A program made the translations under genes and the position numbers. Below the pieces are notes generated by a model, which saw nothing but the letters and a program-made list of their open reading frames with translations, had not been told where the DNA came from and searched no databases. A stretch of DNA of 41,383 nucleotides from Kiritimatiellales bacterium (GTDB lineage: Bacteria; Verrucomicrobiota; Kiritimatiellia; Kiritimatiellales; Tichowtungiaceae): assembly GCA_038213895.1 (NCBI GenBank), contig JBBQSL010000005.1:1-41383 (forward strand), given 5' to 3'. This document shows positions 6,166-34,107 of the stretch, piece by piece. The stretch's first letter is position 1. Each line of letters opens with the position of its first letter.

Positions 6166-6794
6166 TTTAAGTCTCCATTTTCTGTTATTTTTTCCACCTC
6201 AACTAACGACGGTTCAATCACCCGCACAACACGCACCTGCGTACCGGCCGGTAAAGCCTCCTGATTCACGTTCTTTGCTTTCACATGTTCCGAAACCCCG
6301 TTGACTATAATTTTTATTTCACCAAACCCTCCGTCTGGAATATTGAGATAGACGGTTCCGATTTGGCCTTTGCAGGCGGCCATATTTTTGGTTCCGGTTT
6401 CGGTTAGTTTTCCCATGCCATAGAATATCCCAGCAATGGCTAGCATTCCGACCACGCCCCAAATAGAGGCGATTCCCATCGCCGTGAACGCAGGCATGCC
6501 GTCGGACGTGTAAAGCGCACCACCCCAGGAAAAGAGGGTGAAAAAGGTGATGATCGAGCGTAAACTGAGTACCTTAAACGCCTGAGAAGATTCGACCACG
6601 TCGTTGTGGTCCATATCATCCGGCACATCTACGTCGCTGACATTCGCCACGGAGTCACCAGCGATATCCGCATCGTCGCCAGACAGCCCCATGAAGGCGG
6701 CAACAATCTGCCATAGAAAAAATACACTAAAAAACACGGCCATTCCGTAGAATATTCGTGTTACCTCGGCTAAGTTAACCCACCACTCCTGCAT
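6162..6794 (-). CDS. NfeD/YqiJ-family membrane protein, partner of flotillin
   Basis: Two or three TM helices followed by a C-terminal OB-fold-like segment ('GTVYLNIPDGGFGEIKIIVNG...VRVVRV'). The stop overlaps the flotillin start by 4 nt (ATGA), which indicates an operon. Confidence 0.7.
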   Translation of the reverse strand: MQEWWVNLAEVTRIFYGMAVFFSVFFLWQIVAAFMGLSGDDADIAGDSVANVSDVDVPDDMDHNDVVESSQAFKVLSLRSIITFFTLFSWGGALYTSDGMPAFTAMGIASIWGVVGMLAIAGIFYGMGKLTETGTKNMAACKGQIGTVYLNIPDGGFGEIKIIVNGVSEHVKAKNVNQEALPAGTQVRVVRVIEPSLVEVEKITENGDLK

Positions 6795-28471: not shown

Positions 28472-29407
28472 TTATGCGCCTTCGGTACGGAGACGCGGAT
28501 CAAGCGCGTCGCGCAACGCATCGCCGAGCAAATTGAAGGCTAAAACTAATCCAAAAATGGCCAGCGTAACGAAGGTCATTTCCCACCAAACGCCCTGCCA
28601 GAGCCGCATGCGGGCACTATTGATCATAATACCCCACGACGGTTCGTTCTGGACACCGATACCAAGAAAACTCATGAAGACTTCCGTGCTCACGGCCGCC
28701 GGGAAACGTAGCGTAAAAGTTACGATTACGACGTGGAAGACGTTGGGAAGAATGTGACGGAAGAGAATCCGCGGCCAACTCAGCCCTAGCGCTTTCGCCG
28801 CCTGCACATAGGCCTGCTCCTTATGTTTGATCACTTCACCGCGAATCAGACGGCACAGTCCGACCCACGTGGTAAGTCCGATGCCGAGATAAATTCCCAT
28901 CAGCCCCTTTCCGACCACCATAGCAATGGCAAGAATGAAAAGCAGCCCCGGCATCGAAGCGACAGTAGAATAAAGCCAGACGACAAAGCTATCCACCCTG
29001 CCACCAAAATAGCCCGCCAGACAGCCGAAGAAAACGCCGATCGGAATAGCAATCAGCGCGGTGATGATACCAACCTTATAGGCAATGCGCGTCCCCTGAA
29101 TCAGACGCTGCATCACGTCACGACCCAACGCGTCAGTGCCCATCCAATGTTTGGAATATGGAGATTGATAGGCCTGATTCAGATCGGTCTTCTGATAAAA
29201 AGCAGTCTGATCTTTCGCCTTATAAACCTGATAAACCGCTTCGCCATAAACGGCCAGCGCGGTGTAAAAAACGACCACCCCGAGACAAACCATCGCGAGG
29301 CGGTTCTTTTTCAATCGCCGCCAAGCGTCGGACCAGAGCGAGATTCCTCGCTCCGGAGTTCTCGGCGGTCGGGGTTGGGGGTCAGTCCTTGAATTTTGAT
29401 ATTTCAT
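28472..29407 (-). CDS. peptide ABC transporter permease, OppC/DppC-like
   Basis: N-terminal 'SLWSDAWRRLKKNRLAMVCLGVVV' and the transporter motif region. Its ATG (29407-29405) and the first codons lie inside the left end of the adjacent transposon. Confidence 0.8.
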   Translation of the reverse strand: MKYQNSRTDPQPRPPRTPERGISLWSDAWRRLKKNRLAMVCLGVVVFYTALAVYGEAVYQVYKAKDQTAFYQKTDLNQAYQSPYSKHWMGTDALGRDVMQRLIQGTRIAYKVGIITALIAIPIGVFFGCLAGYFGGRVDSFVVWLYSTVASMPGLLFILAIAMVVGKGLMGIYLGIGLTTWVGLCRLIRGEVIKHKEQAYVQAAKALGLSWPRILFRHILPNVFHVVIVTFTLRFPAAVSTEVFMSFLGIGVQNEPSWGIMINSARMRLWQGVWWEMTFVTLAIFGLVLAFNLLGDALRDALDPRLRTEGA

Positions 29408-30456
29408 TCTTCATCTCCAACAAAGCACCCTCTGTCACCACTTCAACCTCGCGAACCGCTCTTGAAATCGTCGCCGCGTGACCCATATTTAACGCCTCGG
29501 AAATCCATTCGTTCTTTACGCTCGTATTCCGGCGAATAAGCCATGCGATAACCTTTTTCCGGTCATCGCCTTTTTTCAGCTTTTGCAACATCTCACGGTT
29601 AACTTTCAGGACGTCCAGACCGTTCCCAAGAAGTTTTTCAGCAGCCTGTTTATCATGTCGCGCAACGGCTCCGCCGCTGTGCGAATCCCGGCGTTTTCCC
29701 ATTGCAGCATTCTCCAGAGCACCGCGCACTTGTGAACAAAACTCTGCGGATCCGAAAATCCATCCCCTTCGGATCTGATCCCACATCTCATCCGCTTTCG
29801 CTGGGTTGTCGCTATGCAGAATGGCCAGGACTCTCTTCTGCATGGCCTTGCGATAGGCCGCTCTTCCGAGTGCTGTATCCTCAAAACTGCAACTCTTCAG
29901 AACCCGGTCCACCGTCAGCCAGCCGGGCCGCTCCGAAGGATAAAGATATCCCCGAAAACTGCTCCATTTGAAATCAGAAAGTGTGCCCTTCTCTAGATCA
30001 AAACAGTTCGCCCGCACCGGATTCAAATGAATATAACTGGATACAGTAGAAAAATACTCTCCACCATCTACCAAAAGGGCTTTATATCGGCCTTGGAAAA
30101 GATGACCCCAGACCTTATGCCGGGCATTAAAGCGCTGAGTATACGTCCCCTGAAGCCACCGCATACCATCCACGAGATTCGGTTCCGGTGTTTCCAGCAG
30201 AAGATGATAGTGATTACCCATCAGGACAAAGACGTGGACTCTCCATCCACATCGATTGCACGCATCCCCGAGAGTTTTAAGAAACATCTCGTGATCCTGC
30301 TGGTCTTTAAAAACCGGATCCTGACGGTTACCGCGGCACATCACATGATATACTGCCCCGGGGAATTGAACTCTTAACGGTCTTGGCATGAGAATCATGT
30401 AAACAAACTACAAAGGTAGCGTCAATCGAAAATATCAAAATTCAAGGACTGACCCC
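29378..30456. mobile_element. insertion element carrying a Y1 (IS200-like) + DnaA-HTH transposase, bounded by 27-bp perfect terminal inverted repeats
   Basis: 29378-29404 is GGGGTCAGTCCTTGAATTTTGATATTT. 30430-30456 is its exact reverse complement. A single gene lies inside. The right flank has a tandem 11-bp duplication GACCCCACTAA (30451-30472). Confidence 0.7.
29382..30398 (-). CDS. transposase: N-terminal Y1 HuH (IS200-like) domain + C-terminal DnaA-type helix-turn-helix
   Basis: 'VYHVMCRGNRQ' and HuH 'MGNHYHLLLE'. The C-terminus 'KVIAWLIRRNTSVKNEWISEALNMGHAATISRAVREV' is a DnaA-C-like HTH. The stop codon sits in the left inverted repeat. Confidence 0.75.
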   Translation of the reverse strand: MILMPRPLRVQFPGAVYHVMCRGNRQDPVFKDQQDHEMFLKTLGDACNRCGWRVHVFVLMGNHYHLLLETPEPNLVDGMRWLQGTYTQRFNARHKVWGHLFQGRYKALLVDGGEYFSTVSSYIHLNPVRANCFDLEKGTLSDFKWSSFRGYLYPSERPGWLTVDRVLKSCSFEDTALGRAAYRKAMQKRVLAILHSDNPAKADEMWDQIRRGWIFGSAEFCSQVRGALENAAMGKRRDSHSGGAVARHDKQAAEKLLGNGLDVLKVNREMLQKLKKGDDRKKVIAWLIRRNTSVKNEWISEALNMGHAATISRAVREVEVVTEGALLEMKNEISKFKD

Positions 30457-30473
30457 ACTAAGACCCCACTAAC

Positions 30474-31787
30474 TCATTTCAATTTGACCCGTGGATCGAC
30501 TAGGGCGTAACAAATGTCGGTTAAGAGGTTGGCTATAACAAAGAGGATCGAGCCGACCAGCACGATAGCGCGAACGACGTCGACATCGGATGAGTTGATG
30601 GCGTTGATGCCGAGGTAGCCGAGACCTGGGATGCCGAAGAAGCTTTCCAGCAGCAGACTGCCGGTATAAAGAAACGGTATGGCGATAACGGTGTTGGTGA
30701 TGATCGGGATCATCGCGTTTTTCAGAACGTGTTTGAAAAGCACCCCGAGTCGACTGACGCCTTTGGCCTGAGCGGTGCGGACATAGTCACGGTGCGCCTC
30801 GTCGAGCATGATGGTACGGTAGAAGCGCAATTCAGCGCCAAGACCGCTGAATACGCCGATCAGTACCGGCAGTATTAAGTAACGTGGATCCTCAAATCCC
30901 CAGACTGGGAACCAACCCGCTTTGAAGGCGAGCAGATACTGTCCGGCAACAATCCAGACGAGATAGTTGACGCTCATCAGCGCAACCGAAAAGACGACGA
31001 AAAAGCGGTCCACCCAGGTATCGCGCCAGAAGGCACAAAAGAGCGAAAGCATGATGGCGGTTATCAGGCCCGCGAAGAAAATAGGCACAGCCAACATCAG
31101 TGACGGGCCGATGCCGTCGCTCAGCAGTTTGGAAACACGCTGATTCGTACTGCTCGAAACGCCAAAGTCGAGATGCGCCAACCGATTGAGGTAAAACATG
31201 AACTGCGAATCGAACGGATTATTCATCACGCGACGCAATTTAATGGCACGAATTTCCACTGGGGCAGTTCCCGGAATGATTTTCCCCACGGTTTGAAAGC
31301 GCAGACGGATTTTTTTCCAATCATTGGAAAGTTTAAGCTGATTTTCTCCAAACGTTGGAAATCCGCCAGCGCGTCCTTCGATTTCGAGTTCGTATTCACA
31401 ATCGGTGCGCAGAGCAAATTTAAGCGGAAACTCATATTCTCCGCCAGCAGCAAGAACGATCATACCATTAGTCCAGATGACGCCCGCCGCTCCCTGCCAG
31501 TCGCCTGCGGTACGTTCAAAGTCCGAGTCAGCATAGGCGCGAGTCCCAGTGCTGGAACCAACAAAAAGCGGTTTATTAAATCCTCGCTGTTCATCGAACT
31601 CTTCGAGGGCCTGCGGTGAAACATGCTGTCCGAGGACTTGCAACGCCGGACTGCCGCCGACGATATTAAATAGTACAAACGTAATCAGAATGACGCCGAA
31701 CACCGTCGGGATCATCTGCACTATTCGTTTGGTAATATAGCGAAGCATGAGCATCTGGAATGTTGGAATAGAGGAAGGATGGAACAT
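30474..31787 (-). CDS. peptide ABC transporter permease, OppB/DppB-like, with an enlarged periplasmic loop of about 130 aa
   Basis: Conserved permease core ('YVRTAQAKGVSRLGVLFKHVLKNA'). 437 aa against the usual roughly 310. Confidence 0.75.
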   Translation of the reverse strand: MFHPSSIPTFQMLMLRYITKRIVQMIPTVFGVILITFVLFNIVGGSPALQVLGQHVSPQALEEFDEQRGFNKPLFVGSSTGTRAYADSDFERTAGDWQGAAGVIWTNGMIVLAAGGEYEFPLKFALRTDCEYELEIEGRAGGFPTFGENQLKLSNDWKKIRLRFQTVGKIIPGTAPVEIRAIKLRRVMNNPFDSQFMFYLNRLAHLDFGVSSSTNQRVSKLLSDGIGPSLMLAVPIFFAGLITAIMLSLFCAFWRDTWVDRFFVVFSVALMSVNYLVWIVAGQYLLAFKAGWFPVWGFEDPRYLILPVLIGVFSGLGAELRFYRTIMLDEAHRDYVRTAQAKGVSRLGVLFKHVLKNAMIPIITNTVIAIPFLYTGSLLLESFFGIPGLGYLGINAINSSDVDVVRAIVLVGSILFVIANLLTDICYALVDPRVKLK

Positions 31788-31829: not shown

Positions 31830-33710
31830 TCATTCCCCCCTTCCATTATTCCGTTTCCAAGCGTTCCACGCCGCGTTGTCGATGCGGCGAAATTTGACCA
31901 TGGTATAAGGAAAATCGTGAAGCGTGTAGTTTTTCAGCCAGTTATGGATAACGGCAAAGTCCATGGGCTGGTACATGTAAATCCACGGACAATCTTCGAC
32001 AACCAGATCGGCCATCTGTTCGCAGAGGCGGTCTTTTTCCGGGCCGGGCAACATGGTGCGCAACTGATCGTAGAGTTTGTCGAAATCTGGATTGATGTAG
32101 TTGGCGTGATTAGGGCCGGGCGAAACATTCGCGCCATAGAAAAGCTGAAGGAAGTTTTCGGAGTCCGGGTAGTCGGCGATCCAGCCGAGTTCAAAAATCT
32201 GCGCCTGACGGCGATCCAGCTTGTCGAGAAAGGCTGGCCAGTTATTGTAGCTGGCCTTCAGTACGACGCCCACTTTATCAAACATACTGGCGACCAGCTC
32301 GATCGCCTGCCGCATGTCAGCGGTCGCGTTACCCAGCTCGATATTCAATTCAAGCCGACGTCCGGTTGCCGGATTAATTCCGTCTGGGTAACCGGCCTCA
32401 GCCAAAAGCTGTTGCGCTTTTTCAAGGTTGTACGAATAAGCCGTCGGCACCGGCTTAAAGCCAGCCAACGGAGCAGGCAAAGGGCCGTAAACGGGAGCAA
32501 CACGTCCGTTATAATACTTGACCAATAATTCCGGATGAAACGCACAGCTCAGCGCCTGCCGCAGCTTTTTATTTTTTCCGACGACTGGGTCGTCCAGATT
32601 GAAGCCAATATAATAAGGGCTAAGCGTCGGGCTGGAAAGCAGATCGACGCCCTGCTTTTTAAGGTCTTCGACGAGACCGCTGTCGGGCTTGATGACGGCA
32701 TCCCAGTTGTCGCGCGAAATACCGCTATAGCTGAACTGTCCGGAGAGAAACATCATCCAGGTGGTCGCGGCGTCGTCCACGACATACTGCACAATGCGGT
32801 CAATAAAGGGAATCTGCTTTCCGGCATCGTCGAGCAGTCCGGCGGCGCGGGCTTCTTCCGGGCCGGTGGATGGATAAGTTTCGATCCGGCCAGTTTCAGC
32901 CCACTTGGGATTGCGGATAAACTCGATGCGATAGTTGCTCTTATACTGGCTGAGAATGTACGGACCGGTGCCGACGGGATGGTTAATAAATTCACTGCCG
33001 TAAAATTCGACCGCCTCGCGCGGCACGGCAAAAGCATAGTTCATGGCCAGTACCCACAAAAGCTGCGGATATGACCCCTTCAGCTTAAACTGCAACGTAT
33101 ACCGATCCAGCGCGCGCAACCCTTCGACACCGCGGTTATAATCGGTGGGCGCAGTTCCGGACGAAGCGGCGCGGAATTCATCAAGACCGAGAATCCGGTT
33201 ATTGAAAGCCCAGTAGCCGGAGGAAGCTGTTTTCAAATCAGCAACACGTTTGAGGGAATAAACAAAATCCTCTGCGGTCAGCTCGCGGCCCTTGCCGCTG
33301 GGAAAACAGACATCGTCTTGAAAATAAATGCCTTGGCGCAGACGGAACGTGTAAGTGAGTCCGTCTTCCGAAACCTCGGGCATGGCGGCGGTAAGCATTG
33401 GCTGAAGACGGTATGGCCGGTCTAAAAAGGAATACTCCAGCAGCCCTTCATAGAGGCGTCCGACCAGCGCGGATGATGTGACATCGCCTGCACGGGCAGG
33501 ATCGAGACTTTTTATGCGGGAGGTCTGCCCGTAGAGCACCTGTTCGCCTTCGAAACGAAGGGTATCAAGCTCCTGCCGTCCGCAGGCGGAAATAAATAAA
33601 CAGAAGAATATCGAACAGCCGAAGCGAAGCGGAGACAGGCTTAAGCGAGGCGAAAGCAATGAACGAAGGGAATGGCAACGAATAATAAATAATGAAGTAA
33701 ATTTGCGCAT
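31830..33710 (-). CDS. ABC transporter substrate-binding lipoprotein, family 5 (OppA/DppA-like)
   Basis: Lipobox 'FISAC'. Family-5 SBP core. Start taken at the ATG at 33710, which avoids overlap with secG; the tabulated ORF extends to 33839. Confidence 0.75.
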   Translation of the reverse strand: MRKFTSLFIIRCHSLRSLLSPRLSLSPLRFGCSIFFCLFISACGRQELDTLRFEGEQVLYGQTSRIKSLDPARAGDVTSSALVGRLYEGLLEYSFLDRPYRLQPMLTAAMPEVSEDGLTYTFRLRQGIYFQDDVCFPSGKGRELTAEDFVYSLKRVADLKTASSGYWAFNNRILGLDEFRAASSGTAPTDYNRGVEGLRALDRYTLQFKLKGSYPQLLWVLAMNYAFAVPREAVEFYGSEFINHPVGTGPYILSQYKSNYRIEFIRNPKWAETGRIETYPSTGPEEARAAGLLDDAGKQIPFIDRIVQYVVDDAATTWMMFLSGQFSYSGISRDNWDAVIKPDSGLVEDLKKQGVDLLSSPTLSPYYIGFNLDDPVVGKNKKLRQALSCAFHPELLVKYYNGRVAPVYGPLPAPLAGFKPVPTAYSYNLEKAQQLLAEAGYPDGINPATGRRLELNIELGNATADMRQAIELVASMFDKVGVVLKASYNNWPAFLDKLDRRQAQIFELGWIADYPDSENFLQLFYGANVSPGPNHANYINPDFDKLYDQLRTMLPGPEKDRLCEQMADLVVEDCPWIYMYQPMDFAVIHNWLKNYTLHDFPYTMVKFRRIDNAAWNAWKRNNGRGE

Positions 33711-33762
33711 AACTCTTACTTCATCATTCGGAGTCCCTAATTCGACATTAAATATTCTGCCT

Positions 33763-34107
33763 TTATTCCACAGGAACAGATGGCATTTGCACCGGAACCT
33801 GGGGCATAGCGGGCTGTTCCATCGGAATTGGCTGTGCAACGGCTGCCTTATCCAGAATCGACTCGTTGGCGCTACCGGCGAAAAGAATACCGAGAACCAG
33901 CGTGTTCACCAGAAATACGACCCCGATAACAACGGTGGCCTTGGTCAACACGTTACCGGCCCGTGCGCCGAAAAGTGAATCGCCGCCGCCAGATCCGAAC
34001 GCCATGCCGAGGCCTCCGTTTTTAGATTTCTGCAACAGAATCAAGCCAATCAGCGCCAAACTGCACGCCGCTTCAAGAATGATAAGTAATGTACGAATAA
34101 CAGCCAT
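33763..34107 (-). CDS. secG: preprotein translocase subunit SecG
   Basis: 'LIGLILLQKSKNGGLGMAFGSGGGDSLFGARAGNVLTK' is the SecG signature. Lies downstream of tpiA, the conserved arrangement. Confidence 0.85.
   Translation of the reverse strand: MAVIRTLLIILEAACSLALIGLILLQKSKNGGLGMAFGSGGGDSLFGARAGNVLTKATVVIGVVFLVNTLVLGILFAGSANESILDKAAVAQPIPMEQPAMPQVPVQMPSVPVE

Follow-up and report, generated by a model that had tools for sequence, protein, structure and literature searches.

RAYT-like genes bounded by terminal inverted repeats (TIRs) in place of repetitive extragenic palindromes (REPs) were named TIRYTs/TIRtrons in the pages that Di Nocera et al. devote to them (2013, BMC Genomics 14:522; PMC3733652). 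Most TIRYT repeats described there share the motif GGGGWSAS, some overlap the 3' end of the gene ("3'ov"), and certain genomes contain repeat families whose copies are single, dimeric or clustered. In the portion of Quentin et al. that covers these genes (2018, BMC Genomics 19:475; PMC6006769), 20 of the 26 TIRYTs fall into TnpA-REP subclass 2.1, the hallmark of which is a C-terminal helix-turn-helix (HTH) domain similar to Bac_DnaA_C, HTH_23 or HTH_28. A related element was found in a 41,383-nt stretch of the Kiritimatiellales contig JBBQSL010000005.1 (hereafter the window, to which all coordinates refer), where the 1,079-bp segment 29378-30456 holds one intact Y1 HUH transposase gene between two inverted repeats, within an opp locus encoded on the minus strand. 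With a probability of roughly 80%, judged from sequence comparison, this segment is a TIRtron inserted without target-site duplication (TSD) at the 5' end of oppC, and OppC most likely now starts from an ATG of the element.

The element is a TIRtron, a further member of the already described TIRYT kind, placed tentatively in subclass 2.1 by its features and not by a tree. As in other TIRYTs, a single-copy gene encodes a Y1 HUH protein that resembles RAYTs, exceeds them in length and ends in an HTH (for the window protein, in the predicted fold), the inverted repeats replace REP hairpins and carry a GGGGWSAS tip, and one repeat lies over the 3' end of the gene; dimers and clusters of the repeats in some genomes are also common to TIRYTs and the present repeat type. 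The subfamily differs in coming from Kiritimatiellota and Verrucomicrobiota, and the window adds a filled and empty site, an insertion within an operon and a host open reading frame (ORF) running out of the repeat, none of which was found described in the TIRYT passages of PMC3733652 or PMC6006769. The original prediction had proposed a distinct element family: the family is real, but not new, since TIRYTs/TIRtrons (2013) and TnpA-REP subclass 2.1 (2018) precede it. The finding enlarges a known family rather than revealing a new kind of system.

REPtrons (RAYT/TnpA-REP genes with REP/BIME sequences, e.g., Escherichia coli YafM, PDB 4er8) share with the window element the HUH and tyrosine motifs, including YIHLNP, and the arrangement of a single-copy gene between inverted repeat units, with related short doublets elsewhere as REPIN analogues. 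In contrast to REPtrons, the window repeats lack the GTAG tag and any significant hairpin and occur only twice in the 41 kb, without dispersed copies there, while the protein scored 56.6 bits against the NCBIfam model NF047646 (REP_Tyr_transpos), under its cutoff of 80, and has an extra 200-aa C-terminal region with a predicted DnaA-IV-like HTH. Members of the IS200/IS605 family (IS608, ISDra2 TnpA) also insert without TSD, but their ends are subterminal hairpins without TIRs, whereas the window element has 27-nt TIRs without significant hairpins, a protein 2.4 times longer than TnpA and no tnpB. An active insertion sequence (IS) of that family has several near-identical copies per genome, compared with one copy in 41 kb here.

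TIRYT/TIRtron elements are known from these two comparative surveys, which, in their TIRYT passages (PMC3733652, PMC6006769), leave open the movement of the whole unit, the cut position and the recognition target of the HTH. The present locus is a natural example with defined boundaries: relatives show the empty site, the target was not duplicated, and the junctions coincide with the repeat tips. Its host gene appears to have survived by taking its start codon from the element. Testable leads are a repeat end that, across Verrucomicrobiota and Kiritimatiellales, is better conserved than the protein, a repeat class that tracks the HTH segment, and frequent tip stutters.

Filled and empty sites at oppC

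The operon began with a family 5 solute-binding protein gene (31830-33839, minus strand), followed by an OppB-like permease gene (30474-31787, minus strand, directly upstream and co-oriented), the element in operon orientation, and an intact OppC-like permease ORF of 311 aa (28472-29407, minus strand). The latter was 90-94% identical to relatives and was identified by Pfam (OppC_N and BPD_transp_1), NCBIfam and alignment, with its closest homologues being 83-95% identical. OppC homologues occurred in two forms, of 295 aa (MSEKGNSLW...) or 308 aa (MSxQLxTDxxxL..ERGxSLW...).

Comparison of this junction in related strains, a check proposed with the original prediction, displayed three empty sites: oppB and oppC overlapped by ATGA at two loci (L014 and L015) and by 1 base at a third (L016), and the element was absent from all three. 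The ATGA overlap was also present at a further locus, L057, which carries a TIRtron of its own (see below). In the window, the relic of the ancestral oppC start was retained upstream of the element (30469-30477, minus strand), with its ATG (30477-30475) over the oppB stop codon TGA (30476-30474), and it now reads ATG AGT TAG, meeting a stop after two codons. On the other side, the host flank CAACCCCGACCGCCG (29363-29377, minus strand) directly followed the repeat TIR-R as oppC codons 11-15; aligned by eye against L014/L015, it corresponded to codons 8-12 of the 308-aa native form of OppC. From there, the sequence CAACCCCGACCGCCG AGA ACT CCG GAG CGA GGA returned to the native frame, and homology to L015 was clear from AGAACTCC onward. 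Within the host flank, the TIR tip was also repeated imperfectly over 6-7 nt (ACCCCCA/ACCCCGA).

Because the ATGA relic lies upstream and the native frame resumes after TIR-R, the element is, on this alignment, located within the opening codons of the ancestral oppC and not in an intergenic gap; relatives have no such gap, since oppB and oppC overlap by ATGA. The earlier placement of an insertion between oppB and oppC was thus right as to the insertion, given the empty L014, L015 and L016, but the site is inside the first codons of oppC. The TIRtron would have entered the 5' end of oppC a few codons past the ATGA overlap, in a Kiritimatiellales-type genome. HUH enzymes cut and rejoin single strands, a chemistry from which no TSD is expected. 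No flanking direct repeat was found at any of the nine independent TIRtrons compared (window, L057/L017, L023, L059, L060, L021, L005, L001 and L029).

A chimeric join, or a segment flipped at the inverted repeat during assembly, is an exceedingly improbable source of this structure. Inverted repeats of at least 30 nt break de Bruijn graphs, and many homologues were on contigs of ~1.08 kb, which would fit such an error. However, the arms in the window measure only 27 nt, less than the k-mers and reads common in assembly, the same architecture was found in independent assemblies and genome records, and both junctions were collinear with the opp operon of relatives. The short contigs, dozens of which (~1,080 bp, e.g., L013) began and ended inside the inverted repeat, were also considered as a sign of many copies, an explanation that was rejected because repeats of at least 30 nt break the graphs by themselves.

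The probable present start of oppC

The putative oppC start region (29405-29418, minus strand) adjoined the repeat arm and comprised an ATG (29407-29405) with a GGAG (29418-29415) 7 nt upstream, both within the transposase coding sequence. The ATG derives from the transposase codons AAT GAA, and the oppC frame was closed upstream by a TGA (29413-29411). It was the only start preserving the whole OppC_N domain, matched by Pfam from residue 23, and the one used by the collection's gene call for the contig (P0241, 311 aa). Ten oppC codons (MKYQNSRTDP, 29407-29378) were encoded by the element, one more than the nine previously counted. This N-terminus was shared by none of the 16 aligned OppC relatives nor by the seven listed cluster members. 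Look-ups of exact proteins gave no match for OppC, for the 338-aa transposase or for its 301-aa database call P0001, although the 311-aa OppC was found in the cluster tables (P0241).

The element ATG had been put forward as the sole available start, with no in-frame ATG, GTG or TTG before the first transmembrane helix. It is indeed the only one that keeps OppC_N, but a TTG at codon 32 (29314-29312) and an ATG at codon 39 (29293-29291) were found before that helix, within OppC_N. Starting at either codon would delete the conserved SLWSDAWRRL segment. Shine-Dalgarno-like motifs preceded 7 of the 23 long ORFs in the window, for a background of 7%. The ratio of nonsynonymous to synonymous substitution rates (dN/dS) of the window oppC against relatives was 0.03-0.05, as low as among element-free relatives, and the ORF was full length.

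The donated start is plausible and the best reading for oppC, as far as the sequence can tell. OppC would most likely be a fusion protein, its ten N-terminal residues coming from the element; the old start is now a three-codon dead end, and the permease ORF runs in frame out of TIR-R. Transcription of oppC would be read-through from the opp promoter and/or would come from the element.

Alternatively, the insertion could be polar and inactivating, leaving oppC a young pseudogene or translated only from codon 32 or 39, the element ATG being coincidental. The dead end at the ancestral ATG and the internal starts would agree with this, as would the fact that an in-frame fit has a 1-in-3 chance and that the ATG is not a kept TIRtron feature (L057, L023, L059 and L060 have no ATG in that frame). 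Against it, oppC was full length without frameshift or stop, its dN/dS was as low as among element-free relatives, the ATG has a well-spaced GGAG, and 295-aa and 308-aa N-terminal forms coexist in relatives. Because short and long forms coexist, the region before SLWSDAW appears to tolerate change. Inactivation was therefore regarded as unlikely.

Several points nonetheless weigh against a TIRtron insertion with a donated start. The dN/dS values cannot show constraint after the insertion, because they are averaged over long branches (dS 1.3-1.8); the internal TTG and ATG could yield an N-terminally shortened OppC; and GGAG is expected by chance in ~7% of such windows. Neither a second copy, an excision product nor a close filled/empty pair was seen, mobility being deduced from distant comparisons only. 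Finally, Pfam matched no DnaA or HTH family in the C-terminal 113 aa of the transposase or in 34 family members, so that the HTH domain rests on predicted structure.

Separately, an 18-nt perfect palindrome, GAGCGAGGAATCTCGCTC, was located at oppC codons 19-24 (29334-29351), with a one-base variant at the same place in L015. It also forms the core of a dispersed repeat, tGTCATTCCGAGCG-GAGCGAGGAATCTCGCTCTGGTC, that is unrelated and was found on 25 soil/peat metagenome contigs (L032-L056). A metagenome scan with a 23-mer from oppC codons 19-26, tried as a finder of opp junctions, was rejected because the palindrome matched this unrelated soil/peat repeat.

The transposase, its repeats and their relatives

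The two arms of the element, TIR-R (29378-29404) and TIR-L (30430-30456), were 27 nt each and 100% complementary, with a single ORF inside, as first described. TIR-L, read on the minus strand, adjoins the 5' end of the transposase gene; its 11-nt tip GGGGTCAGTCC is common to the nine TIRtrons and fits the TIRYT motif, the repeat start GGGGTCAG being an exact fit to GGGGWSAS. The inner part of the repeat reads CCTTGAATTTTGA. TIR-R, the left arm in window coordinates, encodes the transposase C-terminus ISKFKD and its stop codon (TGA, 29384-29382), which confirmed the earlier position of this stop, and in another frame oppC codons 2-10. A tandem duplication on the right flank was likewise verified: two 11-nt copies of GACCCCACTAA (30451-30461 and 30462-30472, together 30451-30472), each made of 6 nt of TIR tip and 5 nt of flank, form a "stutter" at the outer boundary, the first copy overlapping the tip of the right arm. 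Allowing up to 3 mismatches, the 41-kb window contained no further arm copy (0 expected by chance), and neither the 11-nt tip nor the 17-nt GGGGTCAGTCCTTGAAT recurred there. Subterminal hairpins were not significant on either strand of either end (z of -0.5 to -1.8 against shuffles), and a consensus scan for promoters and terminators in the element gave nothing above shuffle expectation. A TTGAC/TTGA box was observed at a fixed distance after TIR-L in several elements (window 30397-30429, ATTTTCGATTGACGC; L057, L060 and L005), with no promoter called there by the consensus scan.

The TIRYT-type transposase gene (29382-30389, minus strand) encoded 335 aa from the start conserved among homologues (M4, MPRPLRV, at 30389), or 338 aa from an ATG at 30398 (ORF 29382-30398). 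The protein matched Pfam Y1_Tnp with 50.5 bits, and the HUH histidines H63 and H65 and the catalytic Tyr122 (YIHLNP) were invariant in alignments of 30-34 homologues. Its predicted fold was nearest to TnpA-REP, with a C-terminal domain resembling the HTH of DnaA domain IV; the proposed fusion of a Y1 transposase to a DnaA-type HTH is thus borne out by the structural model. By sequence, the Pfam hidden Markov models Bac_DnaA_C, HTH_23 and HTH_28 stayed below significance for the transposase family, and PDB sequence searches for the HTH returned only marginal ISDra2 matches (E 0.04-0.4). More than 7,600 homologues were obtained, the named ones from Kiritimatiellales/Pontiella and Verrucomicrobiota. 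The window protein itself formed a cluster of one sequence on one contig (P0001), and the nearest other transposase among 5.8 billion clustered proteins was 75% identical. Relatives on plasmids were distant only (at most 34.5% identity) and uninformative on a transfer vehicle.

All nine TIRtrons kept the tip GG(G/T)GTCAGTCC and a unit of 1076-1110 bp. A scan of genome collections recovered exact copies of the outer 22 nt of the window repeat in 15 places, in Luteolibacter, Haloferula, an Akkermansia metagenome-assembled genome (MAG), a Pontiellaceae MAG, Kiritimatiellales MAGs and an uncultured Verrucomicrobiota MAG. The contig of the window was not among the matches. Four of them were TIRtrons, whose transposases shared 40-68% identity with the one in the window, while others were 50-90-nt inverted doublets resembling REPINs or miniature inverted-repeat transposable elements (L018, L020, L022, L025, L026 and L031) and the remainder solo copies (L019/L028, L024 and L030). 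As 22-nt copies recur in TIRtrons, doublets and solo form, and as a TIRtron (L023) and a 49-nt doublet (L022) coexist in the Pontiellaceae MAG, the repeat is a widespread family with a tie to this transposase lineage. The original prediction would have been contradicted by a common repeat without relation to the transposase gene; this was not what the scan returned, since exact copies include TIRtrons of the same lineage.

Doublets without a transposase gene were located at L018:887-980 and 1487-1557, L020:5476-5557 and 6354-6431, L022:2904-2952 and L025:2360-2430 (Luteolibacter sp. Populi, Haloferula sp. BvORR071 and the Pontiellaceae MAG). In two Kiritimatiellales MAGs, a solo repeat in TIR-L orientation (L019:5948-5969; L028:2012-2033) preceded the ATG of a gene beginning MNLNGKRALVTGG, at 9 nt from the 27-nt repeat and 14 nt from the 22-mer match. 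Co-oriented host genes started 50-240 nt past TIR-R in several TIRtrons (L005, L001 and L059).

The inner part of the repeat varied with the recognition segment of the HTH. The inner-repeat class CCTTGAAT... paired with the HTH segment MG[HN]xx[AST][IV]SR, a pairing that held even in L021, at 40% protein identity and with the repeat off the coding sequence, and the classes CCGCCTAATTCG and CCTATTATTT paired with MGxxSN[FLM]S. Since the repeat class tracks the recognition segment of the HTH, this suggests that the HTH may read the inner repeat while the HUH domain would act on the conserved tip.

The timing and mobility of the unit were weighed on the same comparisons. For every empty site, the synonymous distance to the window was saturated (dS 1.3-1.8), so the insertion is only loosely dated. 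The perfection of the arms may reflect constraint rather than youth, because the same repeat end was kept across deeply diverged elements (transposases 40-71% identical). The homologues P0109 and P0035, found on many contigs and samples, were each always in one genomic context. The claim of recent activity was not sustained, given a single copy in the window, no near-identical transposase on record, the dS to the empty sites and the possible constraint on the arms.

A domesticated, essentially immobile RAYT-like gene was also considered, in which the repeats would be the mobile unit (REP/REPIN-like) and the oppC position an old event or a local rearrangement. The single copy in the window, the absence from the record of a near-identical protein elsewhere, the one context each of P0109 and P0035 across many samples, and the predicted fold nearest to TnpA-REP all agree with it, as do the doublets and solo copies of the 22-nt end without transposase in Luteolibacter, Haloferula and the Pontiellaceae MAG. 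Vertical inheritance and a single copy per genome are typical of RAYTs (Bertels 2017). Yet close transposase relatives (79-68% identical) were in unrelated contexts (L059, L060, L023 and L057), unit length was tightly kept, and the boundaries at the opp junction coincided with the TIR tips. These unrelated contexts, constant length and tip boundaries speak for at least occasional movement of the whole unit, and immobility seems somewhat unlikely.

A second TIRtron near oppC and stutters at repeat tips

A TIRtron was also found close to oppC at L057, from the same species as the genome locus L017. The L057 OppC was 90% identical to that of the window and 96% to that of the empty L014. The L057 locus consisted of a GH116 gene, the TIRtron (L057:2288-3420), a 12-nt spacer, the last ~21 nt of oppB and the native oppC, intact and with its ATGA; the locus lacked the binding-protein gene and all other parts of oppB. 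This layout resembles a breakpoint at the element, left by a rearrangement or a deletion. The L057 transposase was 68% identical to that of the window and grouped with P0003, which has an unrelated context, and P0009, while the dS between L014 and L057 (0.54) was lower than that between the window and L057 (1.6).

The TIRtron directly upstream of oppC in L057/L017 could mean that the element was ancestral at the oppB/oppC junction and precisely lost in relatives. However, among the junctions compared (L014, L015, L016 and L057), the ATGA overlap was common to all except L016, with its 1-nt overlap, and other close OppC homologues were 293-308 aa long. In addition, the two elements flank the 3' end of oppB on opposite sides, the L057 transposase does not group with that of the window, and the empty L014 is nearer to L057 than the window is. 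Ancestral presence followed by precise loss is hence very improbable. Several lines, namely the 68% identity, the grouping with P0003/P0009 and the closeness of the empty L014, point to two TIRtron lineages having reached the oppB/oppC boundary independently, ~60 nt apart, in two species. This double arrival would be either a coincidence, with some ascertainment bias, or the effect of a target preference.

Native oppC codons 5-10 of the clade (CTGACAACTGACACCCG in L057) resembled the tip GGACTGAC(A)CCC, and, in L057, 9 of 11 positions of CAACTGACACC agreed with the L001-type tip GGACTGACACC, for which a rough estimate of chance is ~5%. Tip-like 5-mers were found within the outer 30 nt at 9 of 41 repeat ends, compared to a background of 5.6% (p = 4e-4). 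Stutters like that of the window were displayed by L001 (e.g., CTGACACCCGCG three times), L057, L005, L024 and L027, and tandem stutters of the tip with a few flank bases occurred at about a fifth of repeat ends. Tip-like targets and stutters are leads, not conclusions. TIRtrons might choose targets mimicking their own repeat tip, with ends repeatedly nicked and rejoined, a speculative and rather improbable idea; were it true, TIRYT enzymes would be sequence-directed and still active, and the elements could be portable 5'-end cassettes rewiring host gene starts. At another left end (L005:2831-2961, compared with L008, L009 and L010-L012), 2 to 4 tandem repeat copies with a 26-nt period were counted depending on sample or assembly, which could be a real change in copy number or an assembly collapse.

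Elsewhere in the window, the OppB-like permease was 437 aa long (413 aa in L014), with an insert of ~160 residues, unusually large for the family, between its Pfam N-terminal and core matches (residues 77-243). A tRNA-Phe (GAA) gene on the minus strand (2089-2164) was the sole Rfam/ARAGORN match in the window.

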